Shown here: positions 40,140 through 56,722 of the stretch, piece by piece | Position numbering within the stretch: position 1 is the stretch's first letter | How the letters are laid out: each line of letters starts with the position of its first letter | From: a plasmid | Reading direction: 5' to 3' (one strand) | Assembly: GCF_053078305.1 (NCBI RefSeq) | Contig: NZ_CP166875.1 | Length of the DNA: 64,000 bases | Translations under genes and position numbers: made by a program | Notes under the pieces: model-generated | Told to the model about the DNA's origin: nothing | The model's database searches: none | Seen by the model: only the letters and a program-made list of their open reading frames with translations

Positions 40140-40205
40140 CAACATGATAAATAATGGTTTTTATGCTAAGAGTGAGACTTTTGGAGGAAATGGGCGCAGA
40201 ACCCC

Positions 40206-40429: not shown

Positions 40430-40448
40430 ATCCTCACTTTACAACGGG

Positions 40449-40796
40449 TTATATGCGGATTCCAGCGCGTTCCGTTCGTTTCGGGTGCTTCCAGTTGATA
40501 CCTTCAAGAAGCATGGATAACTGAGCCGGAGTAAGGTGCACCTTGCCGTCACGGGTGACTGGCCAGACGAAGCGGCCCCGCTCCAGGCGTTTGGTGAAGA
40601 GGCACAGTCCGTCACTGTCAGCCCACAACACTTTTATCTGGTCACCCCGGCGTCCGCGGAAGATGAACAGGTGTCCGGAGAACGGGTCATCCTTCAGGAC
40701 GTTCTGAACTTTTGATGCCAGGCCGTTAAAGCCATTTCGCATATCGGTGATACCTGCAACCAGCCAGATACGCGAACCTGCAGGGAGAGATATCAT
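40449..40796 (-). CDS. IS66 Orf2 (TnpB)
   Basis: 115 aa, characteristic IS66 orf2 sequence. Confidence 0.8.
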   Translation of the reverse strand: MISLPAGSRIWLVAGITDMRNGFNGLASKVQNVLKDDPFSGHLFIFRGRRGDQIKVLWADSDGLCLFTKRLERGRFVWPVTRDGKVHLTPAQLSMLLEGINWKHPKRTERAGIRI

Positions 40797-41473
40797 CAGT
40801 GGCTGCTCCCTTTTATTTCGCGGATAAGTGTCTGTAATAACGCCGGCGTCAGTTTACCTTTAAGCCTGAGAGTTCCGGCCGGCAGAACCAGCTCACAACA
40901 CAGACTGTCGGACGGTGTATTTATCTGCTCTGGTTCCTGTGCGGGGGCCGGGATTTTATTATCCGGCTCCGGCGTTAACGTCACGGGAAGCAGTGCCGGC
41001 ATATTTTTTCCGGAAGGCAGCAGGCCACCTTTCCGGTATTGATGGCGCCAGTTGAAGAGCAGGTTATCGTTGATTCCGTTTTCCCGGGCGATCTGCGCCA
41101 CACAGGCTCCGGGCTGCAGTGACTGCTCCACTAAGGCGATTTTAAACTCATAAGGGAAGTTGGGCCGCCGGGGACGTTTTTTTACCACGGGGGCTTCGGA
41201 TATAACGGTGCTTTCAGGACGTACGACTGGTACCGTGGAAAATTGTCCGTAAAGGCAGGCATCAAGTTCCTGCTCCGACATGCCTGCGGGCAAAGGCCAC
41301 GAAAGGCCAGCTCTCCGAAAGCGCACGAACATACTACAAACTGTTGATTTTGGTACACCCAGGCGACGCCCGGCCACAACCCGGGGTAAATGTTCTTCAA
41401 AGTGAAGACGTAAAGCTTCAGTGATCCAGGTCCGGTGTTTCATACGATAGTGTCCATTAAAAATGATGGACAT
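40796..41473 (-). CDS. IS66-family Orf1-like accessory protein
   Basis: 225-aa ORF immediately upstream of orf2 with overlapping stop/start. Confidence 0.55.
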   Translation of the reverse strand: MSIIFNGHYRMKHRTWITEALRLHFEEHLPRVVAGRRLGVPKSTVCSMFVRFRRAGLSWPLPAGMSEQELDACLYGQFSTVPVVRPESTVISEAPVVKKRPRRPNFPYEFKIALVEQSLQPGACVAQIARENGINDNLLFNWRHQYRKGGLLPSGKNMPALLPVTLTPEPDNKIPAPAQEPEQINTPSDSLCCELVLPAGTLRLKGKLTPALLQTLIREIKGSSH

Positions 41474-41849
41474 TATTTTTGTAGAGCCGGAGGAAACAGA
41501 CCAGACGGTTTAAATGAGCCGGTTACAAACAAATTCGCTTCATAAATTTCATAGTGCAGACCACATCCCCAATGAGCCTGCTTTTCCAGCCTGCTGATCA
41601 CCACATCAGCCCGGATAACATCAAAGGGATTGCGGGAATGAATATTACGAATAAAGCCATCGGTACGTGCTGCTGACATATTTCTGCCCATCTTTAATAC
41701 ACCTCTGTTTTTTGCCCCCATCATCTGTTGAGTTTCGGGAGCCGCGGTTTTGACGTTTTGCGGGGACCTGCCTTTTGTTCCCTCCGGTATTCACCATCAC
41801 CTGTTTGAGAACCTTCGCCGCAAGGGGCATCACTGCCACGGCCGGAAAC

Positions 41850-42160
41850 GACTGTCCGGGGGCAGACCGCAAAAGTTTTTGCCTGCTTTTGGGCAAAAAG
41901 TTTTGCGGGATGTGCATTTCACCCCTGGACTGGCGGAGACGGTTGTGGCTGTCTTTGCCCCCGGCGACAGGGGCTTAAACAGGTGTATGGCACCGGACAC
42001 AACAACGGGCAGGGACCCGCCGCAACGACGAAGAGCGCGTGCGCGAAACGGCGTTGCCCCTTACATCCCGGCGGCCTTTTGCCGGGATGCCAGGAGCGCA
42101 GGCCACGGCGCGACAGAGGCGGCGCGACCGGAACGGTCGCTGCAAGCCCGGGGTTTCGCG
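41850..42160 (-). promoter_or_regulatory. Frpo/ssi-like structured single-strand promoter region, copy A
   Basis: GC-rich non-coding block sharing motifs (CTGTCCGGGGGC, GAGCGCAGGCCACGGCGCGACA, GTCGCTGCAAGCCCGG) with the region upstream of ssb. Confidence 0.5.
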
Positions 42161-42583
42161 TCAGGGATGGAAGCCCGCCAGGGCGGAGACAGCTTCGCTG
42201 GCTCCGTTCACGACAGCCCGCCCCGCCTGGGGGACGCCCGGAAAAGGCATAAGCAGGAGAACAACAAAACAGACAATAATCAGGGCAGCAGTAATCAGAG
42301 TCAGAACAGGAGGAAAAAGAGAATAATCAAAGGGAAGGTGATGTGATTTCCGACAGGTCATAAACAGAGAAGGCGGGGGAAAAGAACGGGCGCCGCAGGC
42401 GCGCGTTCATCCCCGTTCCCGGAGGGAATCGGCCTTCCTGGCAGTCTGGTTGTTCATGCTGCTGCAATGTCAGCAAGGAGAAAGGGGCCACCGGCGAACC
42501 AGCAGCCCCTTTATAAAGGCGCTTCAGTGCAGTCAGACCAGCATCAGCCCTGAAAAGGCGGGCCTGCGCCCGCCTCCAGGTTG

Positions 42584-42742
42584 CTACTTACCGGATTCGT
42601 AAGCCATGAAAGCCGCCACCTCCCTGTATCCGTCTCTGTAACGAATCTCGCACAGCGATTTTCGTGTCAGATAAGTAAATATCAACAGTGTGAGACACAC
42701 AATCAACACACACCAGACAAGAGAGCTGCGTGGTAGTTTCAT
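42584..42742 (-). CDS. hok: Hok type I toxin (flmA/hok-type)
   Basis: 52-aa peptide [52 protein letters not shown]; overlapping upstream leader ORF. Confidence 0.85.
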
Positions 42743-43016
42743 GGCCTTCTTCTCCTTGCGCAAAGCGCGGTAAGAGGCTATCCTGATGTTGTCAGACATA
42801 TGGGATGCCTCGTGGGTTAATGAAAAATTAACTACGGGGCTATCTTCTTTCTGCCACACAACACGGTAACAAACCACCTTCACGTCATGAGGCAGAAAGC
42901 CTCAAGCGCCGGGCACATCATAGCCCATATACCTGCACGCTGACCACACTCACTTTTCCTGAAAATAACCCGCTCATTCAGGCTGTTTACGGGTAATCTG
43001 TGTGATTGTTGCCGCA

Positions 43017-43736
43017 TCACGCCGCCTCCCGGAGTTTGTTCGGCACCATCCACCGCTCCATCTCACGGACAGCGTGACCCGCCTCCCTTGCTGCCATACC
43101 TGCCTCTGCGATGACCTGCCAGAATGGCATATCCTGCCACTGCCAGCGTTCCATCCCGGCCAGTGACGGAAAACGCTCACCCCACTGCCAGAACAGGGTT
43201 TCCAGGTCATGCTCTGCCACCCGGTCACTCCAGCGTGCATACCAGCTTCCGACTGTTTCCGGTGAATGGAACGCCAGTTCGATTTCAGCCTGAGCGACCA
43301 GCGTCTGGTACGCACGGGCTTTCTGCTCTGCCTCCCGTGCCTGCTGGCGGCTGTACTTCTGCATGACCAGCACGGATTTATGGCGACTGCGTTCCCTGAC
43401 ACGGAACCGCACCGACGGGAACAACCGCTCTGCTGCATCACCGGGAAGGGGAAGGAGGCAGACCTCGCCCTGTGTTTCAATCAGCACATCGACGGCATAC
43501 AGCCACTGAGAACGGTTGCCGCGCAGTTCTTCTGCGGTCAGGGACGGCATGAAAAATCGCAGGTCAGACAGCGAAATCCTGCGGCTTCCGTTCAGACAGC
43601 GGAAAAACGCCCCCGCATACGGATATTCCGCCAGCGTGTTACCCTGGTGGCGGCGTTTTTCTGTCTCCGCCACCGCCCGCCATGCGGCCTGTTGCTCTGT
43701 GCTGAGAGGAACCAGTGCCTGTGAACGTGCGCTCAT
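43017..43736 (-). CDS. psiA: PsiA
   Basis: 239 aa; position immediately after psiB as in F leading region. Confidence 0.88.
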
Positions 43737-44167
43737 GCCTGACCTCCTTCCGCCATCAGGATATGGATGATGTCACTGACGCTGTATCCCTGTTCATCCA
43801 GTGATGCCGCCAGTGCCAGTGAATGGCTGACAGCTTCCGGTGCAAACCGCCGCTGCACCTGAACCACCGCAAACGGCTCACCACCGGCATTCACCAGAAC
43901 CAGCACCCAGACCTGAGAGACATCGCCCGGTGAACATAACGCCAGGTGAAAACGTTCGTGGGCAGGCGTGAAACGGACCTGGACGGGGAAAAAGCCGCCG
44001 AACTCGCTGCCGTACTCGCCATTCATCGTCCAGTTGTCCGGCGCATCCAGTTCCCGCATCACGGCGTGTGTCAGCTCACGGCGTTCATCACTTCCGGCAG
44101 CCCGGATATCTTCATATTCCTGTGCGCTCATGGTCTGTAATACATTCAGGGTCAGTTCAGTTTTCAT
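43733..44167 (-). CDS. psiB: PsiB plasmid SOS inhibition protein
   Basis: Start at MKTELT preceded by gggaga; 144 aa. Confidence 0.9.
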
Positions 44168-44221
44168 CACGGTATCTCCCTTGCTGCCGCCCCGTCTCCG
44201 GCGGGGCGGTGTGGTTGTTCA

Positions 44222-46180
44222 TCAGGCGGCATCAGCCAGGTTATCGGCGCGTTCAGTGGCATCCGTCTGTGGACGTGGTGAACCCATCCAGCCAGGCACC
44301 CAGCGGTTGTCTTTCATGTGGAACTCTGCATGTTCAGCGGCATCGCCTTTCTTCATCTTCTCCGCGTCCCGTGCGGCACCGGACAGTCCGGCATCATTCA
44401 GGGCATCGATAATCTGCGGCTTTTTCAGGTGACCGAAGAAGTTTGCTTTTGTCGGCTGCCACCAGTCACGCATGTGAAAGCCGATGGCGCTCTCCAGCGA
44501 GTCCAGCGGACTGCGTGACGTGTGACCATACTCGCGGGTCTGAACGCCGTGGATGCTGCACGCGGTGCAGAAACTGAGCAGTGATAACAGCACGTCCTGG
44601 CTGAGTGACAGGAACGTCGTCATGTCCCGTGCCCATCCCTCCGGTAACAGGGCAGCAAGACGGGCTTTTTCTGCCATCATCGCCATGAATGCGGCACCGT
44701 CCTTCCCCGATGGCGCATCGCTGGTCAGCGAATAATGTTTACATTCCAGGCTGATTTGTGCTGGTTTACTGTACGCTCCGCTGCCAAACACATTCAGGCA
44801 GAGCGTCCATGCCAGCAGTGCCAGAGATTTGTCCGGTTGCTGCATGAGTGCCGCCTGGACTGCCAGCGTGCGTTCGGAAGACATTTTCGTCAGCAGTGGC
44901 AGACTGATTTCCTCCACTGACGCTTTCTCCTGCACCTGTTCCGTGCGGTCAGCGTCGTCAGTCACGTCATCTTCACTGCGCAACTGCACACCACGCTGGA
45001 CACACACATTACCGTAACGCCAGGACACCACCACGCCACTTCCGGCACGCATCTCCGGCGTCCACGCCCTGACCTTCGCCATGCAGTCAATCAGCTTCAT
45101 TTCTGCTGCCAGCAGGTCAGATTCCTCACACTGGTTTTCCAGCGCGTCGTAACGCATCATCAGTTCGTTCAGGCGTTCTTCTTCTGCCTCCGTCAGCACC
45201 GCTTCCGGCTCCGGCAGGTTGCGGTATGCCCGGGAATCTTCACGGCACTCACCGACAGGCTCCATGCGTCCGGCGCACCATTCCCAGCCTTCGGCTTCCC
45301 GAAGGTGTTCAGCGACAGCCTGGAGTTTTTCCAGCAGGGCGGCATCGAGCGCCACGCAGTCCACATAGCCACCCTCGTCATCGCTGAACAAATCAGTACG
45401 CAGTTCGTCAGGTGAGAAAGCATCAGCCCCCACGAAGCGGAATTTAGTGTTGTCCTTCACCGCCACTTCACTTTCCGTAATCAGATTGCGGATAACCCGC
45501 ACATCCGGTTTACCGCCCCATCCTGACTGGCAGGCCGCTTCAAACACCTGCACCTGACGCGCGGTGTCGTTCTCCAGCGCCAGCGCCTGACAGTGCTCGG
45601 TGGTGATGCGGTCTTCTGCCAGCGCATCGAGGATGACAGGCGCAAGGTCTGCCAGTTTCAGCATTCGCTGAACGTGGCGGGGCGAATAACCCAGCAAATC
45701 ACCGATTTGTGCAGGTGTTTTGCCTTCCTGCGCCATTGCACGGAATCCGGCAATCTGTTCGGCAGGGTGCATATCCCGACGATGACCGTTCTCGGTCATC
45801 GATGCGGCAGTCGCCAGCTCCTGCGGAATGACCTTCACACGGACAGGCCAGTCAACCTGAATGATGTCACGCTCTGCCAGCATGTTGAGTGCTGCCAGTC
45901 GGCGACCACCTGCGGCGACACCGTAACGGTCACCTGGCAGGGCATGAACAACCAGATTCTGTAACAGGCCGACACCTTTAATGGAGTCCGCCAGTTCGCT
46001 GACGGACTCCGCAGAATACGGCACCGTGCGCACATTCAGCGGAGACTTAATCAGCGAGGCCAGCGGCACGCTCACTTCCTCCGTCTGCGCCAGCAGGGCC
46101 GACAGGACTGTTTCCTGCGTTTTTGCAGGTTTACGGCTGGATTTACGCTCCGTTTTTGCCTTAGACTCTGTAACTGACAT
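44222..46180 (-). CDS. ParB-like nuclease-domain protein of the leading region
   Basis: Start at MSVTESKAK preceded by gggagg; 652 aa; ParB/Srx-like N-terminal region. Confidence 0.75.
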   Translation of the reverse strand: MSVTESKAKTERKSSRKPAKTQETVLSALLAQTEEVSVPLASLIKSPLNVRTVPYSAESVSELADSIKGVGLLQNLVVHALPGDRYGVAAGGRRLAALNMLAERDIIQVDWPVRVKVIPQELATAASMTENGHRRDMHPAEQIAGFRAMAQEGKTPAQIGDLLGYSPRHVQRMLKLADLAPVILDALAEDRITTEHCQALALENDTARQVQVFEAACQSGWGGKPDVRVIRNLITESEVAVKDNTKFRFVGADAFSPDELRTDLFSDDEGGYVDCVALDAALLEKLQAVAEHLREAEGWEWCAGRMEPVGECREDSRAYRNLPEPEAVLTEAEEERLNELMMRYDALENQCEESDLLAAEMKLIDCMAKVRAWTPEMRAGSGVVVSWRYGNVCVQRGVQLRSEDDVTDDADRTEQVQEKASVEEISLPLLTKMSSERTLAVQAALMQQPDKSLALLAWTLCLNVFGSGAYSKPAQISLECKHYSLTSDAPSGKDGAAFMAMMAEKARLAALLPEGWARDMTTFLSLSQDVLLSLLSFCTACSIHGVQTREYGHTSRSPLDSLESAIGFHMRDWWQPTKANFFGHLKKPQIIDALNDAGLSGAARDAEKMKKGDAAEHAEFHMKDNRWVPGWMGSPRPQTDATERADNLADAA

Positions 46181-46245
46181 AGTTAGTACCTCCCAAAACG
46201 GTAATAATGATTGTCTGCCGGACGCGTTCCCGTCCGGCACCTCTC

Positions 46246-46521
<276 letters not shown>

Positions 46522-46536
46522 TCACAGTCAGGCCAG

Positions 46537-47064
46537 TCAGAACGGGATATCGTCTGAAAATCCGTAATCCTCCCCCTCCGGCGGCTGAGGCTGAGGCTCG
46601 GGCTGCGCGGCCTTACGTCCACGGCCTTTCGTTTTCGCGCCACTTTTTTTCGTCGCGTCAGCACTCTGTGGCTGCCCATTCTGCTGAGGCTGCGGTTGTG
46701 CCTGAGCGTTCTGCTGTGGTGCAATCCCCAGCATCTGCATGGTGCCCGTGGTCTTAACAAGAATTTCAGTGACGTAACGGGTGATACCGTTATCTTCCCA
46801 GCTACGGGTTCGGAGTTGCCCCTCGATATAGACCTGCGCGCCCTTGCGCAGATATTCACCAGCCACTTCCGCGAGCTTGCCGAACAGCACCACGCGGTGC
46901 CATTCCGTCTGCTCCCGCATCTCCCCCGTCTTTTTGTCGCGCCAGCTTTCTGATGTGGCCACCTGCAGGTTTGCCACTGCGCCCCCGTTGGGGATGTAAC
47001 GGACCTCCGGATCATTGCCCAGACGCCCGACGAGGATGACCTTGTTGATACCACGTGCACTCAT
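46537..47064 (-). CDS. ssb: plasmid single-stranded DNA-binding protein
   Basis: OB-fold N-domain, Gln/Pro-rich linker and acidic C-terminal DDIPF tail. Confidence 0.92.
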
Positions 47065-47227
47065 GAGAACCTCCTGACTGAAAGATGTGAGATAAACCGG
47101 ATACCGGAGACGGGACGTTCATATGCCCCTTCAGAGGAGCGAAAGCTCCTCCTGCCGTCCACTTCTTCGGGGTTTCTCCCCGCAGTGGACCTTTCCGATG
47201 GGGGCCCGTTTACCGCCTCACGGGACA

Positions 47228-47452
47228 GCTGTCCGGGGGCGGACGCAAAATTTTTTGCCGGGTTCATGGCTAAAAATTTTGTGGCCGGTATATCTTCCCC
47301 TGGACTGATGGAACGGGAGGTGGTTACGTCTGCCCCCCGGAAAGTCCACAGCGGGAAACAGGCCGCAGAGGTGGCGGCAGAAGAGGAGCGCAGGCCACGG
47401 CGCGACAAAGGCGGCGCGACCGTTCCGGTCGCTGCAAGCCCGGGTTTTCACG
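47228..47452 (-). promoter_or_regulatory. Frpo/ssi-like structured single-strand promoter region, copy B, upstream of ssb
   Basis: Homologous to 41850..42160; non-coding, GC-rich, hairpin-rich. Confidence 0.55.
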
Positions 47453-47764
47453 CATCGGACCGTAGCGACAGCCCGAAACCGCGCCAGCGGGTTCGGCGGA
47501 GACTGGCGGGTGCGCCAGCAGTTGCCTGTCGGAGTCGGGCCTGACGACCGGATGCCGCCAGGCAGCCGGGAGCCGAAGGGGCGCATGTGTAAGAAGGTTC
47601 TTTAACGACAGGTCTGTAACAGGTACTTCCTGAAACAACGCCTGTCACCAACAGGAAGGGTAACGGGCGACGCGCCAGCGTGGCCCGCATCCCTTCCGGC
47701 AGGCGCCAGCCTGCCAGGGGTTTTCGCGCGGGCTGACAGGCGGCCTCCACCGCCTACCCCTGTA

Positions 47765-47956
47765 TCACCTGTGCCTGCTGCCCTGAAGGATGTAGTGACC
47801 ACCGAGGAAAACCGCCTGCTGATTCGCCACAAAATCACAGATTTCATCAACAATCTGCGCGGTGGTGAGCGGTTTCTGCCCCATTTCACGACGCCGCGCA
47901 TTAATCACGGCTTTGTAATTGCGCAGAATTTCGCGGGTTTCCGTGCTGATATTCAT
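47765..47956 (-). CDS. hypothetical small protein
   Basis: 63-aa ORF whose start overlaps upstream gene stop. Confidence 0.45.
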   Translation of the reverse strand: MNISTETREILRNYKAVINARRREMGQKPLTTAQIVDEICDFVANQQAVFLGGHYILQGSRHR

Positions 47957-48375
47957 TACCCGTTCTCCCCGTCCAGCGCCTGACGCATTACCCGCATAAT
48001 CTCACGTTCTTCCCTGACAAATGCGTCACCGTCGCCCCCGTTCTCGCTCCCTACAGCATGGAGGCGATAAATTTCACTACCAGCCATCACCATCACTTTT
48101 TCCAGCAGCACCGCAGGGACTGTTACAAGACGGTTTACGCGCTTTTCCTCCATCAGTTCATTGACAATATCGGAAACAACTCTGTCACATGCGCCATATA
48201 CAAAAGCATCGTCCAGCCGCTGCATGACGGTTTCCAGCTCATCGTCTGACAGGTTCCAGTCCCGGGCTATGTGGCGCACATCCCCGCGGGTCAGCACCAC
48301 GGCAAAAACACATTCACTGTCCGGCACGTCTGTATTCAGCACTTCGCGGATAATTTCTTTAACAGTACAGTACAT
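47956..48375 (-). CDS. hypothetical protein
   Basis: 139 aa; ATG preceded by aaggag. Confidence 0.55.
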   Translation of the reverse strand: MYCTVKEIIREVLNTDVPDSECVFAVVLTRGDVRHIARDWNLSDDELETVMQRLDDAFVYGACDRVVSDIVNELMEEKRVNRLVTVPAVLLEKVMVMAGSEIYRLHAVGSENGGDGDAFVREEREIMRVMRQALDGENG

Positions 48376-48421
48376 GTTCTCGTCTCCTTTACAGGGGCGG
48401 CATTGCCGCCCCGTCCGTTAA

Positions 48422-48847
48422 TCAGTCCAGTGCCGCGTAAATCGCGTTACATTCGGGGTGAAATTCGATGTGGCTCCACAACTGCGCATCGCGCATCCGG
48501 TAAAGCTGGGTCAGTCCTGCATCCCCGCTGTCGTGGTACAGCCACAACTGGCGGTTAATCACAAGGGAAGTCAGGATGATACCTGCGGCATCAGCACTCA
48601 CAGTGCGGTCAAACCAGTTTTCACCGTTGACCAGATGAAAACGGTCGCCATCCGGCATCATGTAACCGCCACCGTCCGGCAGGCGGATGAAATGCCAGAA
48701 GCCTCCCTGATATTCCGGCATCATTTTTTGCGCCAGCGCGTACACATACGCCTCGGCATACAGAAAATCGTTGCCAAACAGGTAAGGCAGAAAGGAGAGA
48801 CGGTCGCACTCTTCAACGTTCAGAGTGACAGATTTCGCATACTGCAT
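48422..48847 (-). CDS. antirestriction-family protein (ArdB/KlcA/YfjX-like)
   Basis: Start at MQYAKS inside ORF 48422..49066; motifs [20 protein letters not shown]; family assignment from memory. Confidence 0.65.
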
Positions 48848-49093
48848 GGGATTTCCTCCGTTGTTCACATATTCCGCGACACCGGGCGGTGCCGTGCCTC
48901 CAGAAAAGCCGGGCGATAAGGCGGGGATGCAAGGGCGCAAGGGAAGCCGCAGCCTGACGCACACGGCTGGCGGGAGTTGGAGGGTGAGACCGCGAAATCT
49001 GAGCGGGTGAACGACCGGAAAATCACGGCAGACGGGAAGGAGGGACCGGGTGACCGCCGCGTGCATTTTACCCTTGCATCCCCGCCAGCGTCA

Positions 49094-49864
49094 TCATTTC
49101 CGGATTTTCGCCAGTGCATCCGCCATGCTGCGGATTTCATCCCGTGCCTCCAGAACAACCTCCCGCAGAATATCCCTGTCAAACCAGCGACGGGACGGTT
49201 CATCCGGTATACGCAGCACATCACAGACCAGACCACTGGCCAGGATATGCTCCACACACTCACAGACCAGGTACATTTCCACCGCCGAAAAACGGGCGCC
49301 ACGGTTCAGAATGGCATCGAGCACCACGGGCAGATTTTCGTCATCTTCATCAAGCCAGCAGGGGTAATCGCTTTCCTTCACGACCAGACGAAAGCGGCGC
49401 GTCTGGCGGGTCAGCAACGTCTGACCGGTGGTGGTCAGCGCCGCCCGGATACGCCGCGTATCTTCTGCCACCTGGTAACAGATGCTTCGTACTGCATTGC
49501 GCACCGCATCAAGAACTGCCCTGATTTCTTCCTCCGTCAGCCATTCACCGGCATACGGGAAAGACACCTGCGTTCCGTCTGCCGGAAGTACCGGCAGCGC
49601 CTGCCACTGGCTGCCGGACAGAACAAGTTCCGCTCCGGTTCCGGTCAGTTTCTGAATGGCGGAGGCCAGGTGCGGCGGCAGTACGCCATCATGGCGGCTG
49701 ATAAGTAACGTCGCCAGCCGGGATATATCCAGTCGCACATAAATGCTGATCCAGCCCGGATAGTGCGGATTCAGTTGTTCAATATCCGTCTCTTCCGGCC
49801 AGCCCTGCGCCAGCAGCAGGTTACGGGCGTGGCGACAAACCAGTGCATTCAGCGTTTTGTTCAT
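49094..49864 (-). CDS. hypothetical protein
   Basis: Start at MNKTLN preceded by ggaga; 256 aa. Confidence 0.55.
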
Positions 49865-49908
49865 GATTAATGGTCTCCCTGAATCGCCGCCCGAAGGCGG
49901 CGATAACA

Positions 49909-50343
49909 TCAGTCGTTTTCGTGTGTGTTGTTTTTCAGCAGGGCGCGGGCCTGATTAACCACCGCCTGACGGCGGGTGACGCATTCCGGGACGACGAGGC
50001 CGTTATCACGGGCGTCCCACTCACGTTTCCACAGTGCCTGTTCGGCGGTCTGAATCAGGGACGCCAGCAGTTCAGCCGGGACGGTCACCTGGCGGTTTTC
50101 GCTCACGTTGCTGATAATCTCCATCGCCACGCCGGAAGAAATACCGGACTCAGTCCGCTGGTCTTCCGGGATGTCCTCCAGGCGCACCAGGACGGTCCTG
50201 ATTTCATGATCGGACAGGGAAATATCCATTCCGTCAGCGAGGGCCTGAATCTCTTCCGGGGACCAGACAACCAGCATCAACGGCGTGTCTCCCGGATACT
50301 TTACTGCCAGCGCCCGGCAGAGCGTTTCGCATGTTCCGTACAT
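49909..50343 (-). CDS. hypothetical protein
   Basis: Start at MYGTCE preceded by gaggggag; 144 aa. Confidence 0.55.
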
Positions 50344-50354
50344 ACTCTCTCCCC

Positions 50355-50576
50355 TCAATCTTTGAAGCAGGAATCCAGTTCCAGAATTTCGGTATATGCC
50401 TCCATCAGGAGGCGGTTTGCGCGAAACAGCGTCTGACGCACCAGACGTTCCGGCAGGGTGTCAGCATTAAAGCTGTACCGCCGCTCCATCTCATTCATGG
50501 TTGTACGCAGGTCGCACATGGCATTGGCCACCTCCGCCACTTCGGCGCGAAGGTTTTCATGTCCGGCATAGTTCAT
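50355..50576 (-). CDS. hypothetical small protein
   Basis: 73-aa ORF adjacent to methyltransferase stop. Confidence 0.45.
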   Translation of the reverse strand: MNYAGHENLRAEVAEVANAMCDLRTTMNEMERRYSFNADTLPERLVRQTLFRANRLLMEAYTEILELDSCFKD

Positions 50577-51260
50577 TTACGCAGCCTCCGGCATAAACCA
50601 GTCATCATTTGCGGCCCCCTGCTGCATGGCCCGCTGTACGGCAGCCAGACGTTGCTGTCCGGCACGGTGATACTGCTCAAGCAGCTCGATACCGATATAC
50701 CGGCGTCCGGACTGGAGGGCGGCGACGCAGGTTGAGCCGCTGCCTGCAAACGGGTCCAGCACAATCGCGTTCGGATGTGTGAAGCTCTCAATCAGTGGTT
50801 GCAGGCTGGTAACGGGCTTTTCCGTCGGGTGATGGCGGTTGCCCGAATATTTCCAGCCCAGCACATCCGGCAGCGGGTTACGGGGCCGGGCCGGACTGCC
50901 CTTTGCCAGGATGTAAGCGCATTCGTGGCGGTACGCGACATACACAGATTTGGATGTGTAGTTTTTGGTGAAGACCAGGTGCCCAACCACGCTGAATCCG
51001 GCGCGTTTCCAGGCCGCCATAAAGCGGTCAATACGGTGCCAGCCGTAGAAGCTGACCATCAGCGCGTCTTTTTTGAGTACGCGGTACATCTCATTGCTGG
51101 CAGGTTGCAGCCAGTCATCATTAACGTCACCGGCAATGGTGCGCCCGGAACGGTCACGGAAACCGACGAGATATGGCGGATCGGTTAATATGAAATCAAT
51201 GGCGTTATCAGGAATCGTGGCCATAACACGCACGCAGTCACCCAGGATAAAACGGGACAT
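50577..51260 (-). CDS. orphan DNA N6-adenine methyltransferase
   Basis: Start at MSRFILGDC preceded by aaggag; DPPY catalytic motif; no restriction endonuclease partner seen nearby. Confidence 0.8.
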   Translation of the reverse strand: MSRFILGDCVRVMATIPDNAIDFILTDPPYLVGFRDRSGRTIAGDVNDDWLQPASNEMYRVLKKDALMVSFYGWHRIDRFMAAWKRAGFSVVGHLVFTKNYTSKSVYVAYRHECAYILAKGSPARPRNPLPDVLGWKYSGNRHHPTEKPVTSLQPLIESFTHPNAIVLDPFAGSGSTCVAALQSGRRYIGIELLEQYHRAGQQRLAAVQRAMQQGAANDDWFMPEAA

Positions 51261-51643
51261 AACAGCTCCTTCTCTTACAGAGGGCACCGGGAGGGCACCC
51301 CTGTGGTGCCCGTTCCCCGCTGCCTGTGGGCTGTACACCGCGTCCGGTAACGGGTCAGGCCGACCGTGGAATACCGCAGCCGTCGTCTTTTTGACGGCAA
51401 GGTTATGCCGCGAAAGCGGCTTGAAGGGCGTTCATCAGAAAAGGGCGACGGGCTGGCGTACACTGTCACCGACGCCAGCCGGGAGCGGTAAAAGCGCCCG
51501 TCCCGTGCCCGGCCGGACGCGGGACACTGACCACAGGCAGCGTTTATGCCGCGCCGCATCAGCCGGCGCAGTAAAAAGAGGAGCACAGCGACATCCTTTA
51601 CCGGAAAAGAAACGGGCGGTTGCCCGCCCGTCTCCGTCATACT

Positions 51644-52570
51644 TCATCCGCCATAATGCGCCACCTTGTCGACTATCCACGCAGGTCCGGTGACTTCCGG
51701 CAGCTCATCGTCATCTGTCGGGGAAGACCATTCCAGTTCCCCCCACAGCACATCAACGAGCTCTCCGCGCTCATACAACTGCCAGCCACAGAAATCACAG
51801 CCCTGTTCGGCATACCAGTGCTCCAGCGTGCAGCTGAAACGGCGGCTTAATTCTGCAATAACGTCGCTTTCCGGCTGACACCACGGCGTGTCGAAATCAA
51901 CCTGAATGAAGTTGTCTCCCTGACTACTGATATTCACCTCATACCCCACAGGCCACTTCACGCCATACCGTTCCGTATACCAGTGATATGCAGAAGGAAC
52001 ACCGTTCAGAACACCACCGTTAAAGCCATTCACTTCAACATCCAGGCGGGTCGGCAGAACCGTCAGCAGGTCAAACGGCATGGTTTTTTCCGGCAGTACG
52101 TTGTCACACAGACGGTTCCACCACACCGATACATCCTCGTTACTCCAGAAGCCACACCAGTCACCTCTTTTTGCGGTGAAAAGTGCGGTGATGGTATCCC
52201 TGACATCGTCCGGTAATCCTTTCCAGCGACGCTGTCCAGTACCGCTCTGCAGCCAGAGTTCATGCAGCATCAGGCAGTTTTGCTCATCCAGCAGTACACC
52301 GTCCTGCAGGTGTGTCAGCCAGCGGGTGAACGCGATATTCTCCGGCGATACAACGCCACGTCCGGCAGCCGTCAGTCCGGGGCATGGTTCAAACCGCACA
52401 TCTTCAGTGGTCTGCAGAAGTCCGGCACTTCCGGCCAGAAACAGCTGAATACCTTCATTTGTGGCGCGGCGATAAAGCGGTGTGACTGCACCGCTGGCCA
52501 GTCGTTTAATCTCAGCAATCTGTGCCGGTTCACCAGAAAAATGCATACGATTTGAGCACCAGTTTGGCAT
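51644..52570 (-). CDS. hypothetical protein (MPNWCSNR N-terminus)
   Basis: Start at 52570 preceded by gagaggag; ~308 aa. Confidence 0.55.
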   Translation of the reverse strand: MPNWCSNRMHFSGEPAQIAEIKRLASGAVTPLYRRATNEGIQLFLAGSAGLLQTTEDVRFEPCPGLTAAGRGVVSPENIAFTRWLTHLQDGVLLDEQNCLMLHELWLQSGTGQRRWKGLPDDVRDTITALFTAKRGDWCGFWSNEDVSVWWNRLCDNVLPEKTMPFDLLTVLPTRLDVEVNGFNGGVLNGVPSAYHWYTERYGVKWPVGYEVNISSQGDNFIQVDFDTPWCQPESDVIAELSRRFSCTLEHWYAEQGCDFCGWQLYERGELVDVLWGELEWSSPTDDDELPEVTGPAWIVDKVAHYGG

Positions 52571-52922
52571 GGGAATTCTCCTCTCACATGCGGCCTCCAT
52601 CAGGCCGTGCCGCACCTGTAACCGGGCGACCGCATACGAATGCAGGTGCGGCCCCGAAGCCGCATCGCGTGGAGGAGGAACGACGAAACGTGACCGGGTG
52701 AGGAGGCTGGCGACAGCGACACACTTGCATCGGATGCAGCCCGGTTAACGTGCCGGCACGGCCTGGGTAACCAGGTATTTTATTCACAGAACCGTGCGCA
52801 AAATGCTGTGGATAAGCTGGACACAGCAGTCCACAGCAGGCATACAGCCACCCCCTCAGAGAATTGAGCGTTTTTTAGTCACAATAATGACATTTGACTG
52901 TGTGGATTCAGTTATTAGAATG

Positions 52923-52938
52923 CTGTATATACATACAG
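52923..52938. promoter_or_regulatory. LexA (SOS) box CTGTATATACATACAG upstream of impC
   Basis: Matches CTGT-N8-ACAG consensus; sits ~25 bp upstream of impC start. Confidence 0.65.
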
Positions 52939-52961
52939 CAATAGAAAAGGGAGATGAGAAC

Positions 52962-53210
52962 ATGATCCGCATTGAAATTCTTTTCGACCGCCAGAGCACA
53001 AAAAACCTCAAATCAGGCACACTTCAGGCGCTACAGAATGAAATCGAACAACGTCTGAAACCACACTACCCGGAAATCTGGCTGCGTATAGACCAGGGCA
53101 GCGCCCCGTCTGTATCTGTCACAGGAGCCCGCAACGACAAGGATAAAGAACGTATCCTGTCTCTGCTGGAAGAAATCTGGCAGGACGACAGCTGGCTGCC
53201 TGCAGCATGA
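52962..53210 (+). CDS. impC: ImpC (DinI-like)
   Basis: 82-aa DinI-like protein; ATG preceded by aaaagggaga. Confidence 0.75.
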   Translation: MIRIEILFDRQSTKNLKSGTLQALQNEIEQRLKPHYPEIWLRIDQGSAPSVSVTGARNDKDKERILSLLEEIWQDDSWLPAA

Positions 53211-53644
53211 GTACCGTTTATCACCGTCCGGCTGACCCTTCAGGCGATGACAGTTACGTGCGACCGTTGTTTGCCGATCGTTGCCAGGCCGGTTTTCCTT
53301 CGCCTGCCACTGATTATGCTGAGCAGGAACTGGATCTGAACAGCTATTGCATCAGCAGACCTGCAGCCACCTTCTTTCTGCGCGCCAGCGGTGAATCGAT
53401 GAACCAGGCTGGCGTGCAGAATGGTGATCTGCTGGTAGTGGACAGGGGCGAAAAACCACAACACGGGGACATCGTTATCGCTGAGATCGACGGTGAGTTC
53501 ACCGTCAAACGACTGCTGTTGCGCCCACGCCCGGCACTGGAGCCGGTTTCAGACAGCCCGGAATTCCGCACACTGTATCCGGAAAACATCTGTATTTTTG
53601 GTGTTGTCACTCACGTGATACACAGGACGCGGGAGTTACGCTGA
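53207..53644 (+). CDS. impA: ImpA (UmuD-like, LexA-type self-cleaving protein)
   Basis: 145 aa with S24 peptidase-like motifs GESM and KRL. Confidence 0.88.
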   Translation: MSTVYHRPADPSGDDSYVRPLFADRCQAGFPSPATDYAEQELDLNSYCISRPAATFFLRASGESMNQAGVQNGDLLVVDRGEKPQHGDIVIAEIDGEFTVKRLLLRPRPALEPVSDSPEFRTLYPENICIFGVVTHVIHRTRELR

Positions 53645-54918
53645 TGTTTGCACTGGCTGATATCAACAGTTTCTACGCCTCATGTGAAAAAGTTTTCCGC
53701 CCGGACCTTCGCAACGAACCGGTCATCGTACTCAGCAATAACGATGGCTGTGTGATCGCGCGCAGCCCGGAGGCAAAAGCCCTTGGCATCAGAATGGGGC
53801 AGCCCTTGTTTCAGGTGAGACAAATGCGCCTGGAGAAGAAAATACATGTATTTTCCAGCAATTATGCGCTGTACCACAGCATGAGCCAACGGGTCATGGC
53901 TGTTCTGGAGTCGCTTTCTCCCGCAGTTGAGCCCTACTCAATTGATGAAATGTTTATTGATTTGCGGGGGATAAATCATTGCATCTCTCCGGAGTTTTTT
54001 GGTCATCAGCTCAGGGAACAGGTAAAGAGCTGGACAGGACTCACCATGGGGGTGGGCATTGCGCCTACAAAAACGCTGGCTAAAAGTGCACAGTGGGCAA
54101 CAAAGCAATGGCCACAGTTTTCCGGTGTGGTCGCGCTGACGGCAGAAAACCGTAATCGGATCTTGAAGCTACTGGGACTGCAGCCAGTTGGTGAGGTCTG
54201 GGGAGTAGGACACAGACTGACGGAAAAGCTGAATGCGCTGGGTATTAACACAGCACTGCAGCTGGCGCAGGCTAACACGGCATTCATCCGGAAAAACTTC
54301 AGCGTCATTCTTGAGCGTACGGTACGCGAACTCAACGGCGAGTCCTGCATATCCCTGGAAGAAGCACCACCGGCAAAACAGCAGATTGTCTGTAGTCGCA
54401 GTTTTGGTGAACGAATCACAGACAAAGATGCCATGCACCAGGCTGTTGTTCAGTATGCAGAGCGGGCCGCAGAGAAACTACGTGGGGAGCGTCAGTATTG
54501 CCGGCAGGTGACGACATTTGTACGGACATCCCCCTTTGCAGTAAAAGAACCCTGTTACAGCAATGCCGCTGTGGAAAAGCTTCCATTGCCCACACAGGAC
54601 AGCCGGGACATTATTGCCGCCGCATGCAGAGCCTTAAACCATGTCTGGCGTGAAGGGTACCGCTATATGAAGGCAGGAGTCATGCTGGCTGATTTCACAC
54701 CATCGGGTATAGCGCAGCCGGGATTATTTGATGAAATCCAGCCCCGTAAAAACAGTGAAAAGTTAATGAAAACACTCGATGAACTGAACCAGTCGGGAAA
54801 AGGGAAAGTGTGGTTTGCGGGGCGAGGAACCGCCCCTGAATGGCAAATGAAACGGGAAATGTTGAGTCAGTGTTATACAACTAAATGGCGAGATATTCCC
54901 CTGGCCAGGCTGGGTTAG
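53644..54918 (+). CDS. impB: ImpB (UmuC-like Y-family polymerase subunit)
   Basis: 424 aa starting MFALADINSFYAS. Confidence 0.9.
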   Translation: MFALADINSFYASCEKVFRPDLRNEPVIVLSNNDGCVIARSPEAKALGIRMGQPLFQVRQMRLEKKIHVFSSNYALYHSMSQRVMAVLESLSPAVEPYSIDEMFIDLRGINHCISPEFFGHQLREQVKSWTGLTMGVGIAPTKTLAKSAQWATKQWPQFSGVVALTAENRNRILKLLGLQPVGEVWGVGHRLTEKLNALGINTALQLAQANTAFIRKNFSVILERTVRELNGESCISLEEAPPAKQQIVCSRSFGERITDKDAMHQAVVQYAERAAEKLRGERQYCRQVTTFVRTSPFAVKEPCYSNAAVEKLPLPTQDSRDIIAAACRALNHVWREGYRYMKAGVMLADFTPSGIAQPGLFDEIQPRKNSEKLMKTLDELNQSGKGKVWFAGRGTAPEWQMKREMLSQCYTTKWRDIPLARLG

Positions 54919-54919
54919 T

Positions 54920-55336
54920 TCAGTCATCTCCGAACATATTTTCAGCGTTTCTTCTGGTCTGGTCTTCACCGTCATTTCTCGACAGACTCTGCTCTGTAAG
55001 AGGAGTACTGCAATCCACAGACGTATGGAGACCAGATTGTTTTTCCAGTAATTCAAGCAATTTCTTTTCAACCGAAAAAGCACCTGGTATCACGCTGGAA
55101 ATCACCTTATTAATATCATCCAGAGTCGTATTTTCTGTCAGTAACTCCGATATCAGCAAAGGAAGACGTTTATCTATAGCTGCAAACGCCGCACCAGTAA
55201 CTAACATCGCGCGCATGAAACGTCCCCGCTCCTTCAGTTTTTCATTTGCAATGAGCTCATCTGCTATCTTATCTCCTGTCCGTTCATCCGGGAAAAGTTC
55301 AAATGAGCAGCGTCTGGATTTATTTTCATCACTCAT
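54920..55336 (-). CDS. ParR/StbB-like partition adaptor
   Basis: 138-aa ORF immediately downstream of and overlapping parM. Confidence 0.5.
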   Translation of the reverse strand: MSDENKSRRCSFELFPDERTGDKIADELIANEKLKERGRFMRAMLVTGAAFAAIDKRLPLLISELLTENTTLDDINKVISSVIPGAFSVEKKLLELLEKQSGLHTSVDCSTPLTEQSLSRNDGEDQTRRNAENMFGDD

Positions 55337-56309
55337 TAGTCACACCACCTTTCATTTTTATCATTCCCATGACTAAATCAAACTGCGGGGATGAGCTCAG
55401 ATAAAAGCGCTCATCAGGAACCTTAGTCAGGTTCTTCACAGCCTCGGCCACAATTTCAGCCCCACCACCAACACACATTACATGTGTATAGTCGGTGAAA
55501 CGGCTGATGACATCATTAACTCGTTTAATAAGCAACTTCTGCCGTTCATTGATAACATTAATGATAGACTCACGCTGTTCAGCATTATAAATGCGACGGG
55601 AAAGGTAGTCAGGTTCATTACGGTGCACAATGATATTGTCAGCCTGGAATGAGCTCACTCTTGTATTAGCATGTACAGCCATCTGTTCCTTAACCCCGGA
55701 TGTAATCAGGGACACGCCGATATTCGGATCACACCAGGTTTTTGTAATCCCTGTCATTTTGCTACGAACATGCGACACATCAAGAGTTGTACCACCGAGA
55801 TCTACGATCAAAAGGGATTCATCATCCTCAAGCCCCGCAAGAACACTGAAACCAGCGGGAATACTTTCAGGAAGAACGGAAACACTGCGAATAACAAATG
55901 CATCACTCCCCTGCACCCGTACTTCACGCATCACATTTTTTTTCTTTCTTTCAATGTTTTGCTTATTTTTCTGATTGTTGGCGTCAAGGTATTCAGAGAT
56001 CGGCAATGTGACGATGACATCAACAGGCTGCGCTTTCAGGCCGGTCTGCTGTAGCGCATGCTGAATGGCCACAACATTCACATCACTGTACTGATAGCGT
56101 GTTTCAGTCGTTACGACAGCATCAGCACTTAATGGATCAAATGAAAACTTCTCGCCGTCGATCTCGTAATTAGCCGGGGCAGCATCATCCAGTAAACTAA
56201 AAGACCATTCCGGTTTAAAGCTGTTAGGGCTGATTAACGTTTTCACGTCACCATCCTCCAACCAGGCAAGTTTAATGTTGGTAGAACCATCATCAATAAA
56301 GATTTTCAT
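55329..56309 (-). CDS. parM: ParM/StbA actin-like segregation ATPase
   Basis: Start at MKIFIDDGSTNIKL; similar throughout to remembered R1 ParM. Confidence 0.85.
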   Translation of the reverse strand: MKIFIDDGSTNIKLAWLEDGDVKTLISPNSFKPEWSFSLLDDAAPANYEIDGEKFSFDPLSADAVVTTETRYQYSDVNVVAIQHALQQTGLKAQPVDVIVTLPISEYLDANNQKNKQNIERKKKNVMREVRVQGSDAFVIRSVSVLPESIPAGFSVLAGLEDDESLLIVDLGGTTLDVSHVRSKMTGITKTWCDPNIGVSLITSGVKEQMAVHANTRVSSFQADNIIVHRNEPDYLSRRIYNAEQRESIINVINERQKLLIKRVNDVISRFTDYTHVMCVGGGAEIVAEAVKNLTKVPDERFYLSSSPQFDLVMGMIKMKGGVTNE

Positions 56310-56722
56310 AACCAGTCTCCGTTGCTCATAAACAAATAGAAAAAACAAACATGCTTCATACATGCAATGTATATTTAATTATAATGAAAAAATGGTCTTT
56401 CTGAAAGGAGAAATACAACATAAAAACACGATAAATTGCATGTGCATTGTACACACAACTTTAAGACCAGAGGAAATCATAGATACAAAAACATTATGAA
56501 GGTTATATGTAATACATAAATGCAATATAAAAACATCTTTGACATCATGGTTCAGGTTAAGGGAAAAGGAATGACATGGTGAAACTGAGAGGAAAGGAAA
56601 GCGGTGACGAATCATGTCACCATAAACAGAAAGATGTCTAATGGGGACTCTTTAGGTACGTGAAGAATCCCCATAACGCATTTAAAAGACACACATCAGA
56701 TACCCTTAAGGTATCCGATAGT

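Follow-up and report, generated by a model that had tools for sequence, protein, structure and literature searches.

Introduction

The closest described counterparts of the locus analysed here are the leading regions of plasmid F and of the IncI1 plasmid pESBL, in which a DNA methyltransferase gene and an antirestriction gene each head a short operon. Wen et al. (2025; PMC12672017) reported zygotic induction of both operons from single-stranded-DNA promoters in pESBL and F; three promoter classes with mapped transcription starts were described, and the start belonging to the promoter ssp1 was mapped in pESBL by 5' RACE (PMC12672017). A second promoter, ssp2, also serves F as a replication roadblock (Fraikin et al., 2026 preprint). 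Deletion of ssp2 from F lowered transfer into E. coli HS, B, IAI1, and ED1a at least 21-fold. With regard to the encoded proteins, the pESBL methyltransferase M.EcoGIX is a characterized, single-strand-specific orphan enzyme that carries out promiscuous m6A methylation of single-stranded DNA at SAY sites, associates with DNA polymerase I, and confers protection that depends on the orientation of oriT (Fomenkov et al., 2020; PMC7736820); SAY single-strand activity has been described only for M.EcoGIX and M.BceJIII (PMC7736820). ArdB inhibits type I restriction systems whatever the recognition site, with the mechanism of the ArdB/KlcA family still undescribed (PMC10149784); the F homologue, encoded by yfgB, was reported to be 93% identical to R64 ArdB and to be under ssp2 (bioRxiv 10.64898/2026.01.09.698686). 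Among gene families enriched in leading regions, Samuel et al. (2024; PMC11541004, Supplementary Table 1) ranked YffA 6th, DUF1380/YfcB 7th, YchA/YfdA 10th, YfcA 11th, and YfeC 14th.

We describe here a version of this locus found in a plasmid stretch of 64,000 nt, hereafter the window. We are highly confident that what we see here is the canonical "establishment" module of the leading regions of F-like and IncI/K/B/O plasmids, represented by its distal half. The composition of this module, its regulation by single-stranded-DNA promoters, and the idea that its unknown neighbours are anti-defence genes are already in the literature of 2020-2026; what the window adds is a plasmid-specific variant with a truncated ssp2, probably fused operons, and a block that is inverted and apparently detached from oriT, along with a confident but uninformative structure model of YchA/YfdA.

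Results

Layout and conservation of the block

The seven open reading frames (ORFs) named in an initial annotation of this DNA are all present (7/7), and all lie on the minus strand. In the direction of transcription, the block and its surroundings are arranged as follows:

51261-51643, minus strand: ssp1 ("class 3") single-stranded-DNA promoter region, upstream of yfbB
50577-51260, minus strand: yfbB, 227 aa, orphan beta-class N6-adenine DNA methyltransferase, M.EcoGIX orthologue (by sequence)
50355-50576, minus strand: yfcA (YfcA/YubE), 73 aa, PF27407
49909-50343, minus strand: yfcB (YfcB/YcgB/YubF), 144 aa, DUF1380
49094-49864, minus strand: yfdA (YfdA/YchA/NgrC/YubG), 256 aa
48848-49093, minus strand: truncated klcA leader with the ssp2 ("class 2") remnant
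48422-48847, minus strand: klcA (yfeB; yfgB in F), 141 aa, ArdB/KlcA-family antirestriction protein (by sequence)
47956-48375, minus strand: yfeC (YfeC/YcgC/YubJ), 139 aa, divergent DUF1380 paralogue
47765-47956, minus strand: yffA, 63 aa, its start overlapping the yfeC stop by 1 nt
47065-47764, minus strand: ssi/Frpo-type ("class 1") single-strand promoter region, upstream of ssb
43017-47064, minus strand: downstream operon ssb-yfjA-yfjB-psiB-psiA (NCBIfam and Pfam matches)
46537-47064, minus strand: ssb, in the operon directly downstream of the block
46246-46479, minus strand: DUF905/yfjA
44222-46180, minus strand: ParB-like YfjB/HerB
43733-44170, minus strand: psiB
43017-43736, minus strand: psiA

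Intergenic spacing within the block is 0, 11, 44, 46, and -1 nt, and ribosome-binding sites of the GGAG/GAGG type are found 5-10 nt upstream of each of the seven ORFs, in agreement with the good sites that the initial annotation had noted. We assigned the klcA start to the ATG at 48847; a longer klcA ORF reaching 49066 was rejected as an artefact of the GC-rich leader. The leading-region block has all of its ORFs intact (12/12), with zero frameshifts. When the seven ORFs were compared with their F, pESBL, and pLH50 orthologues, dN/dS ranged from 0.04 to 0.56, which shows both conservation and purifying selection in the five hypothetical ORFs, as their description as conserved-looking had suggested; the placement of the block near psiB and ssb was likewise borne out. 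The gene order of the block is the same in F (NC_002483, 54166-57837), in pESBL-EA11, and in the IncK2/Z plasmid pLH50-c-A, and a PLSDB search returned at least 5,000 matching plasmids, with 3,995 among the matches listed covering at least 80% of the 5.7-kb query.

The five small neighbour proteins

YfcA, which is 96% identical to its pESBL version, matches phrog_4830 (PHROGs, E 1.9e-33), and identical genes in related contigs carry the label PF27407:YubE; the yfcA start codon abuts the yfbB stop codon (0-nt gap), and its dN/dS is 0.10-0.29. YfcB, 92% identical to the pESBL protein and with a dN/dS of 0.30-0.56, matches DUF1380 (PF07128, E 9.6e-53); its AF2 model was unusable (pLDDT 56.6) and was kept out of the fold search. 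YfeC (dN/dS 0.25-0.28) matches PF07128 only at E <= 0.1 in Pfam, but RefSeq gives its orthologues the name DUF1380, and its alignment with the DUF1380 family extends over the whole length at 28% identity, with the MYxT and RxVTVP motifs in common. YfdA/YchA is predicted, with a pLDDT of 90, to be a two-domain alpha/beta protein, for which the fold search found zero structural neighbours outside its own family. YffA yielded no match in NCBIfam, PHROGs, Pfam, or the PDB; it is 98% identical to its F, pESBL, and pLH50 orthologues, with a dN/dS of 0.04-0.09.

Searches of all five proteins, YfcA included, against PDB chains gave nothing significant with either single sequences or profiles, and structure and profile searches together produced zero functional leads. 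Two assignments for DUF1380 were considered and set aside. Its invariant motif looks like the beta-hairpin of AbrB/MazE/Kis, and a weak AbrB match (E ~1) was obtained; this relationship was not supported by a profile-profile comparison (probability 1.2%, against a manually entered alignment), and there was no Pfam SpoVT-AbrB match. The "adenine-specific methyltransferase" label that some databases and Samuel et al. attach to DUF1380/YfeC finds no support here either, as these proteins do not match N6_N4_Mtase and lack both the DPPY and the FxGxG motif.

All five small proteins are genuine passengers, co-transcribed within the block, and our best guess is that at least one of them assists anti-restriction or another establishment task. 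The suggestion in the initial annotation that they are candidates for anti-defence functions is thus reasonable, but it is not new, as the families appear in Samuel et al. (2024), and our searches gave it no functional lead. That these genes instead serve tasks other than anti-defence, such as reprogramming the host, regulating the methyltransferase or KlcA, or handling single-stranded DNA, comes close to an even call, although we place it just short of one. The neighbouring YfjB/HerB reprograms host transcription instead of countering defence (PMC13370423), yfcA is translationally coupled to yfbB, and neither sequence nor fold comparison linked any of the five to a known anti-defence protein; by contrast, no specific alternative role is positively supported for them, and they reside in operons headed by anti-restriction genes and belong to families strongly enriched in leading regions. 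We propose, tentatively and with our confidence well short of even, that at least one of YfcA/YubE, the two DUF1380 paralogues, YchA/YfdA, and YffA is a new anti-defence or establishment factor and, separately, that the plasmid is a natural ssp2-deleted, operon-fused variant.

Single-strand promoters and a 167-nt deletion

An inverted-repeat search located the ssp1 hairpin arms at 51318-51347 and 51513-51542, and the upstream DUF1281 gene has a hairpin resembling a terminator at approximately 51603-51632. The predicted DNA fold of ssp1 has a free energy of -110.8 kcal/mol (z = -7.4 versus shuffles), and its stem is conserved, with 2 compensatory base-pair changes among 5 sequences. Identity of this region to the M.EcoGIX promoter region of pESBL reaches 97.6%, and to F 95.3%, which exceeds the 88-93% nucleotide identity of the adjacent yfbB. 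On these sequence features, yfbB is preceded by a predicted class 3 single-strand promoter hairpin. The ssi/Frpo region at 47065-47764 also folds strongly (-202.6 kcal/mol, z = -10.5) and resembles the three pESBL ssi regions and the F Frpo regions; a related copy, in direct repeat with it, is found at 41922-42160.

When aligned with F, pESBL, and pLH50, the klcA leader lacks 167 nt, which are kept in all of the closest PLSDB relatives. The deletion junction lies inside a direct repeat, GCTGGCGGGGA, at 49079-49089, and the missing segment carries the yfdA terminator together with the outer ssp2 arm. A 31-nt inner stem is retained (48920-48950 with 49056-49086), but the fold z-score of ssp2 is +0.1 here versus -6.6 in F and -5.2 in pLH50; ssp2 in this plasmid does not form the long, exceptionally stable hairpin with promoter elements that defines class 2 and is structurally crippled. 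No terminator-like site is left between yfdA and klcA. Because the deletion removed both the yfdA terminator and the outer arm of ssp2, klcA-yfeC-yffA are probably read through from ssp1, with the two operons fused into one long operon. If so, this natural ssp2-deleted, operon-fused plasmid could reveal whether klcA depends on a promoter and roadblock of its own. A promoter at the deletion junction was considered as well and rejected; a single sigma-70-like site was found there (49094-49065, 9/12 matches), and the region holds fewer such sites than chance predicts.

Orientation of the block and its apparent detachment from oriT

TraI, TraD, and TraG are encoded on the plus strand of the window and the block on the minus strand, whereas block and tra run the same way in F. 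The oriT-proximal end of the block is bounded by a truncated IS66 together with a Tn3-family transposon (35.9-41.7 kb), and homology to F ends at 41703. No homology to an F-type or IncI-type oriT, to traM, or to nikAB was detected within the window. The Tn3/IS66/leading-region junction has no record in PLSDB or in complete E. coli genomes, and a 214-aa ORF specific to the junction has no database record.

The colicin gene of the window was also seen on another contig, which matches only 4 kb of the window.

If the usual orientation of oriT relative to traI applies, the plasmid would transfer the coding strand of the block genes, not their template, and expression from single-strand promoters could not occur. 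Early expression of the block in this plasmid is thus uncertain, because the block is inverted relative to tra and apparently cut off from oriT by the IS66/Tn3 insertions. The initial annotation had called the block early-expressed, which holds for the homologous pESBL and F blocks (PMC12672017), but here the block is inverted and apparently detached from oriT and has one of its two promoters truncated.

The block could alternatively be a stranded relic that inversion and the IS66/Tn3 insertions have detached from oriT and placed on the wrong strand, so that it has lost its role as an early anti-defence module and is expressed at most weakly from double-stranded DNA, an explanation that we consider unlikely. 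It would fit the orientation opposite to traI, traD, and traG, the end of F homology beside the IS66 and Tn3-family elements with no oriT in the window, and the truncation of ssp2 by a deletion absent from the closest relatives; inversion of oriT abolished protection in pESBL (PMC7736820), and orientation dependence has also been shown in F (PMC11541004). Against it, every one of the 12 block ORFs is intact, while F itself has a split DUF1281 gene, and the ssp1 and ssi hairpins are intact as well. Moreover, oriT sits outside the window, so that either orientation is possible. In NZ_CP010120.1, an IS1 inversion moved traM and adjoining oriT-side genes along with the leading region, and an inversion of this type would preserve function if transfer proteins were supplied.

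The two predicted anti-restriction genes

The initial annotation had described klcA as ArdB/KlcA-like and yfbB as a DPPY N6-adenine methyltransferase with no nuclease partner, and profile searches substantiated each of these descriptions. KlcA matches PF03230 (Pfam, E 1.9e-26) and, in the PDB, aligns with KlcA (2kmg; E 6.4e-18, residues 12-142, 68 bits) and ArdB (2wj9; E 2.4e-7); its F and pESBL homologues share ~97% of its residues (96.5% for pESBL), with a dN/dS of 0.06-0.08. These matches identify it as a full-length member of the ArdB/KlcA family. Its 97% identity to F YfgB and pESBL KlcA, together with the literature on these proteins, leads us to infer anti-type-I activity.

YfbB matches NF010253/PRK13699 over residues 1-227 (484.9 bits versus a cutoff of 244; 226-position profile) and also PF01555, and its translation has the beta-class motif order, with TDPPY near the N-terminus and FAGSG near the C-terminus. 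At the amino acid level it is 95.2% identical to pESBL M.EcoGIX (227 residues), 91.2% to the F protein, and 98.7% to that of pLH50-c-A, with a dN/dS of 0.06-0.11. Searches of NCBIfam, PHROGs, Pfam, and PADLOC found no nuclease or defence match among its neighbours (43.0-52.6 kb), and yfbB thus encodes an orphan, M.EcoGIX-type enzyme with no cognate nuclease; this product may, by analogy with its homologues, methylate single-stranded DNA. That yfbB is part of a restriction-modification system or of some other defence system, and not of anti-defence, is extremely improbable. The top PADLOC model for it does carry the label "Type II methyltransferase" (PDLC03228, E 1e-144), but zero nuclease or defence models match within 5 kb on either side, and the absence of an adjacent endonuclease-like protein effectively rules out a Type II restriction-modification reading. 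In addition, the same conserved small genes flank yfbB in the leading regions of F, pESBL, and thousands of other plasmids, and M.EcoGIX, at 95% identity, is a characterized orphan enzyme (PMC7736820). With an orphan methyltransferase and an ArdB/KlcA protein in a leading-region block beside ssb and psiB, the initial view of an anti-defence style gene set is well founded. Neither of the results that would have spoken against this view, a lack of conservation in the hypothetical ORFs or a cognate nuclease beside the methyltransferase, was obtained.

Discussion

Proposed role of the module

In the reference plasmids, the module comprises two operons driven by hairpin promoters that exist only while the entering strand is single-stranded. 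The first runs from ssp1 through yfbB, yfcA, yfcB (DUF1380), and yfdA (YchA), the second from ssp2 through klcA/ardB (yfeB), yfeC (DUF1380-like), and yffA, and the Frpo/ssi-driven ssb-yfjA-yfjB-psiB-psiA operon comes after the second. M.EcoGIX places m6A on single-stranded DNA at loosely defined SAY sites before synthesis of the complementary strand and so blunts many restriction enzymes, while ArdB/KlcA would block type I restriction enzymes, with the recognition site irrelevant. Both anti-restriction activities would be transient, because the promoters vanish once the DNA is double-stranded. For the present plasmid, gene identities, collinearity, absence of a nuclease partner, and purifying selection on all ORFs were shown here, and the ssp1 and ssi hairpins proved to be conserved and to fold strongly; single-stranded-DNA methylation, anti-type-I activity, and zygotic induction are taken from the literature on homologues with 91-97% identity. 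The module is one main way in which F-like and IncI-like resistance plasmids survive restriction on entering a new host, and its five unknown families occur in thousands of plasmids.

Comparison with known systems

At the level of single proteins, KlcA (pBP136, PDB 2kmg) and ArdB (PDB 2wj9; R64) have PF03230 and a full-length alignment in common with the klcA product of the window, although similarity to the solved KlcA structure is moderate (68 bits). At the level of gene grouping, all seven genes of the block fall among the 14 largest leading-region-enriched families, as families 6-11 and 14, in the work on anti-defence islands of Samuel et al. (2024; PMC11541004), and, as in those islands, anti-defence genes are grouped with ssb, psiB, and Frpo/ssi promoters; by contrast, the position that these authors used to define such islands, among the ORFs that immediately follow oriT on the T-strand, appears to be violated in the window relative to tra.

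The IncI1 leading region of pESBL has a gene order from DUF1281 to psiA that is identical to that of the window, and in both plasmids divergent impCAB adjoin DUF1281. The pESBL klcA leader has, however, the 167 nt (terminator and outer ssp2 arm) missing here, and the window carries neither ardA nor oriT-nikAB; it has F-type tra genes and an IncFII replicon, not IncI transfer genes, and its psiA, psiB, ParB, and DUF905 are F-like, unlike the IncI-like versions of pESBL. The leading region of F, with ssp1-ssp4 (Fraikin et al., 2026 preprint; Couturier et al., 2023), has the same genes in the same order; psiA, psiB, ParB, and DUF905 of the window are 96-98% identical to those of F, and identity is 96% for the Frpo1-type region (41.7-42.3 kb). 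In F, however, the block lies directly beside oriT and runs in the same direction as tra; in the window it is inverted, with IS66 and Tn3 apparently separating it from oriT, and ssp2 is truncated. Finally, the methyltransferase, YfcA, and ssb of the window are closer to the IncI/K versions than to those of F.

Conserved coding genes in two anti-restriction operons

Seven minus-strand genes are closely packed between 47.7 and 51.3 kb, with the methyltransferase gene first and yffA last in transcription order (ColIb/R64-style gene names in brackets); ssb, DUF905, a ParB-like gene, psiB and psiA lie downstream.

51644-52570, minus strand: DUF1281 gene, upstream of the methyltransferase gene
50577-51260, minus strand: DNA methyltransferase (yfbB), 227 aa
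50355-50576, minus strand: small ORF (yfcA, YubE), 73 aa
49909-50343, minus strand: DUF1380 protein (yfcB), 144 aa
49094-49864, minus strand: larger ORF (yfdA, YchA), 256 aa
48422-48847, minus strand: KlcA/ArdB (yfeB), 141 aa
47956-48375, minus strand: second, divergent DUF1380-like protein (yfeC), 139 aa
47765-47956, minus strand: small ORF (yffA), 63 aa

The same gene order is found in F (NC_002483, 54166-57837), pESBL-EA11 and the IncK2/Z plasmid pLH50-c-A, where the first four genes follow the hairpin promoter ssp1 and the klcA group follows a second such promoter, ssp2. The initial annotation had described this gene set and its coordinates correctly, the sole change being the klcA start, an ATG at 48847, and the good ribosome-binding sites it had seen for the small genes are GGAG/GAGG-type sites, which precede all seven genes. 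Intergenic gaps are 0, 11 and 44 nt in the methyltransferase group and 46 and -1 nt in the klcA group, and the 73-aa YubE is translationally coupled to the methyltransferase.

Synonymous change exceeded non-synonymous change in every one of the seven genes when these were compared with the orthologues of F, pESBL-EA11 and pLH50-c-A; dN/dS was 0.06-0.11 for the methyltransferase and KlcA, 0.04-0.09 for YffA, 0.10-0.29 for YfcA, 0.22-0.25 for YchA/YfdA and 0.25-0.56 for the two DUF1380 genes. All five hypothetical ORFs, for which a lack of conservation had been considered, are hence constrained (0.04-0.56), and on sequence comparison the seven ORFs are conserved protein-coding genes.

Methyltransferase and KlcA

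Over its full length, the methyltransferase matches NCBIfam NF010253 (PRK13699; 484.9 bits vs a cutoff of 244); it also matches PF01555 and shows the beta-class motif order, with DPPY before FAGSG. Its identity is 95.2% to M.EcoGIX of pESBL, 98.7% to the orthologue of pLH50-c-A and 91.2% to that of F. M.EcoGIX has been characterised experimentally; it forms m6A in single-stranded DNA, at degenerate SAY sites, apparently works together with DNA polymerase I, and guards pESBL from restriction in a manner dependent on oriT orientation (PMC7736820). Searches of NCBIfam, PHROGs, Pfam and PADLOC gave no nuclease or defence match for any neighbouring protein; the enzyme is therefore an orphan, as proposed from the sequence.

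The assignment of an ArdB/KlcA-like protein likewise holds, with matches to PF03230 (E 1.9e-26) and to the solved structures of KlcA (2kmg, E 6e-18, residues 12-142) and ArdB (2wj9). The protein is approximately 97% identical to its F and pESBL homologues; the F homologue, yfgB, reportedly shares 93% identity with R64 ArdB (bioRxiv 10.64898/2026.01.09.698686). ArdB inhibits type I enzymes whatever their recognition site, by a mechanism yet to be described (PMC10149784).

The five small families

The profile and structure check of the five small ORFs proposed in the initial annotation yielded a confident model for YchA/YfdA, a small family found largely in Enterobacterales (184 cluster representatives among 1.84 billion proteins), which AlphaFold2 modelled from a 22-sequence alignment as a two-domain alpha/beta protein (pLDDT 90.3, pTM 0.82). 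DUF1380 was modelled poorly (pLDDT 56.6), and profile, structure-prediction and family searches gave no functional lead for any of the five. Aligned over their full length, the two DUF1380 paralogues are 28% identical and share the invariant motifs MYxT and RxVTVP; the 73-aa protein belongs to PF27407 (YubE), a new Pfam family, and YffA had no match in NCBIfam, PHROGs, Pfam or PDB searches. Two assignments were not supported: the 10-residue motif invariant in both DUF1380 paralogues (47956-48375 and 49909-50343) resembles the DNA-binding hairpin of AbrB/MazE/Kis antitoxins, but homology had a profile-profile probability of only 1.2%, and the label "adenine-specific methyltransferase", given to DUF1380-type proteins in some databases, found no motif or profile support. 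The five small genes are real, co-transcribed passengers of anti-restriction operons.

Promoter DNA and a deletion in the klcA leader

The 383-nt spacer upstream of the methyltransferase gene (51261-51643), which corresponds to ssp1, contains a long inverted repeat and folds far more stably than shuffled controls (-110.8 kcal/mol, z = -7.4), with compensatory changes at two base pairs of the hairpin region among five sequences. With the promoter regions of pESBL and F it shares 97.6% and 95.3% identity, the adjoining methyltransferase gene being less conserved (92.7% and 88.0% nucleotide identity, respectively). The 700-nt spacer upstream of ssb (fold z = -10.5) resembles both the pESBL ssi regions and the F Frpo regions. 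Long minus-strand ORFs lie within these GC-rich hairpin promoter regions (51275-51640 and 47448-47750), and RefSeq lists "hypothetical proteins" at matching positions in pLH50-c-A, F and pESBL; both are probably false gene calls in structured non-coding DNA. Both regions are better conserved than the neighbouring methyltransferase nucleotide sequence.

By contrast with the 413-414 nt in F, pESBL and pLH50-c-A, the klcA leader, in the interval 48848-49093, is here 243 nt long. The 167 nt absent from it lie between two copies of the short direct repeat GCTGGCGGGGA, with the junction at 49079-49089, and include a terminator-like hairpin, GGCGGGGAAAATCCCCGCC-TTTTT, right after yfdA, as well as the outer arm of the long ssp2 stem. 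The leader has a fold z-score of +0.1, vs -6.6 in F and -5.2 in pLH50-c-A, and a scan of the interval between yfdA and klcA found no terminator-like site left. All best PLSDB matches listed keep the 167 nt, and so do six contigs whose YchA protein is identical. From the sequence, we infer that both operons are fused in this plasmid and that klcA-yfeC-yffA would be read through from ssp1; the promoter and roadblock functions of ssp2 have probably been lost.

Orientation and mosaic structure

Within 1-27900, the plus strand carries F-type TraG, TraD and TraI, finO and IncFII repA, and within 41700-56400 the minus strand carries the whole leading and maintenance block, from psiA through the methyltransferase gene to DUF1281, stbB and parM. 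This layout is the reverse of that in F/R100; in F, leading-region and tra genes are co-oriented, so that both use the transferred strand as template, whereas here the block lies on the strand opposite to tra. The F-like, oriT-proximal end of the block stops at 41703 (F coordinate ~64016) against a truncated, ISCro1-like IS66 element (40205-41528), which interrupts the F-like leading region and has in turn been disrupted by a Tn3-family transposon (35.9-40.2 kb); the second half of the IS66 is absent from the 64-kb window. The transposon is AT-rich (GC 0.31-0.36), with a resolvase at 36363-36956 and a transposase at 37101-40139. Beside the IS66 remnant, a second Frpo/ssi-type element (41704-42270) is Frpo1-like and 96% identical to F but has lost its downstream genes (ygdA and a DUF932 gene); a 69-nt core of it recurs, at 91% identity, in the element upstream of ssb (47384-47452).

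No match to F-type oriT, traM or traJ, or to IncI-type oriT or nikAB, was found anywhere within the 64-kb window, and together with the inverted layout this makes it doubtful how the transferred strand is oriented with respect to the block. If oriT is canonical relative to traI, the block genes would be on the wrong strand for single-strand-promoter expression, the condition in which protection was lost experimentally (PMC11541004, PMC7736820). In NZ_CP010120.1, an IS1 inversion moved traM and adjoining oriT-side genes together with the leading region; a function-preserving arrangement is therefore possible.

The block is a mosaic. The genes psiA, psiB, ParB/YfjB and DUF905 show 96-98% identity to F, whereas from ssb to DUF1281 the closest relatives are IncI/K plasmids (97-100% for ssb, yfeC, yfcA, the methyltransferase and DUF1281), with a recombination junction between DUF905 and ssb at ~46.5 kb. 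Divergent from DUF1281, as in IncI1 pESBL, is a plus-strand impC-impA-impB operon (DinI-like, UmuD-like and UmuC-like; 52794-54918), in which impC is called at 138 aa (GTG start, 52794) vs 82-aa DinI-like proteins at the equivalent position of related contigs. Elsewhere, a 420-aa protein (61977-63239) has colicin Ia and pore-forming colicin domains and is short for a full colicin Ia/Ib; judging from related contigs, a RepFIB (Rep3) replicon would follow just past the right end of the window. Direct repeats of ~94% identity occur downstream of repA (32624-32900 and 34506-34784; 279 nt) and within the tra region (2969-3096 and 4888-5015; 128 nt).

Comparison with known leading regions

The 5.7-kb block is present in at least 5,000 PLSDB plasmids at 90-96% identity, at least 80% of it being covered in 3,995 of those listed. 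The leading-region families ranked by Samuel et al. (2024; PMC11541004, Supplementary Table 1) cover all seven genes, namely YffA (rank 6), DUF1380/YfcB (7), adenine methyltransferase (8), KlcA-HS (9), YchA/YfdA (10), YfcA (11) and YfeC (14), and these authors considered anti-defence functions probable among the uncharacterised families. Using transconjugant-specific RNA-seq, Wen et al. (2025; PMC12672017) found strong induction of the M.EcoGIX and klcA operons of pESBL within 15 min of transfer, with transcripts of the F homologues likewise raised in transconjugants, and described three classes of single-stranded-DNA promoters with mapped transcription starts. Fraikin et al. (2026; bioRxiv 10.64898/2026.01.09.698686) reported that ssp2, the klcA promoter of F, doubles as a replication roadblock and that its deletion in F reduced transfer into non-isogenic hosts. 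The anti-defence reading of the initial annotation is therefore sound but already published, including the idea that the uncharacterised neighbours may take part (PMC11541004), and the roles of the five small families are a question spanning thousands of plasmids that the literature has already raised. The module's gene content, its regulation and the concept behind it have all been described before; what is new in this plasmid is confined to two minor features, the deletion of the terminator and part of ssp2 and the inverted position detached from oriT.
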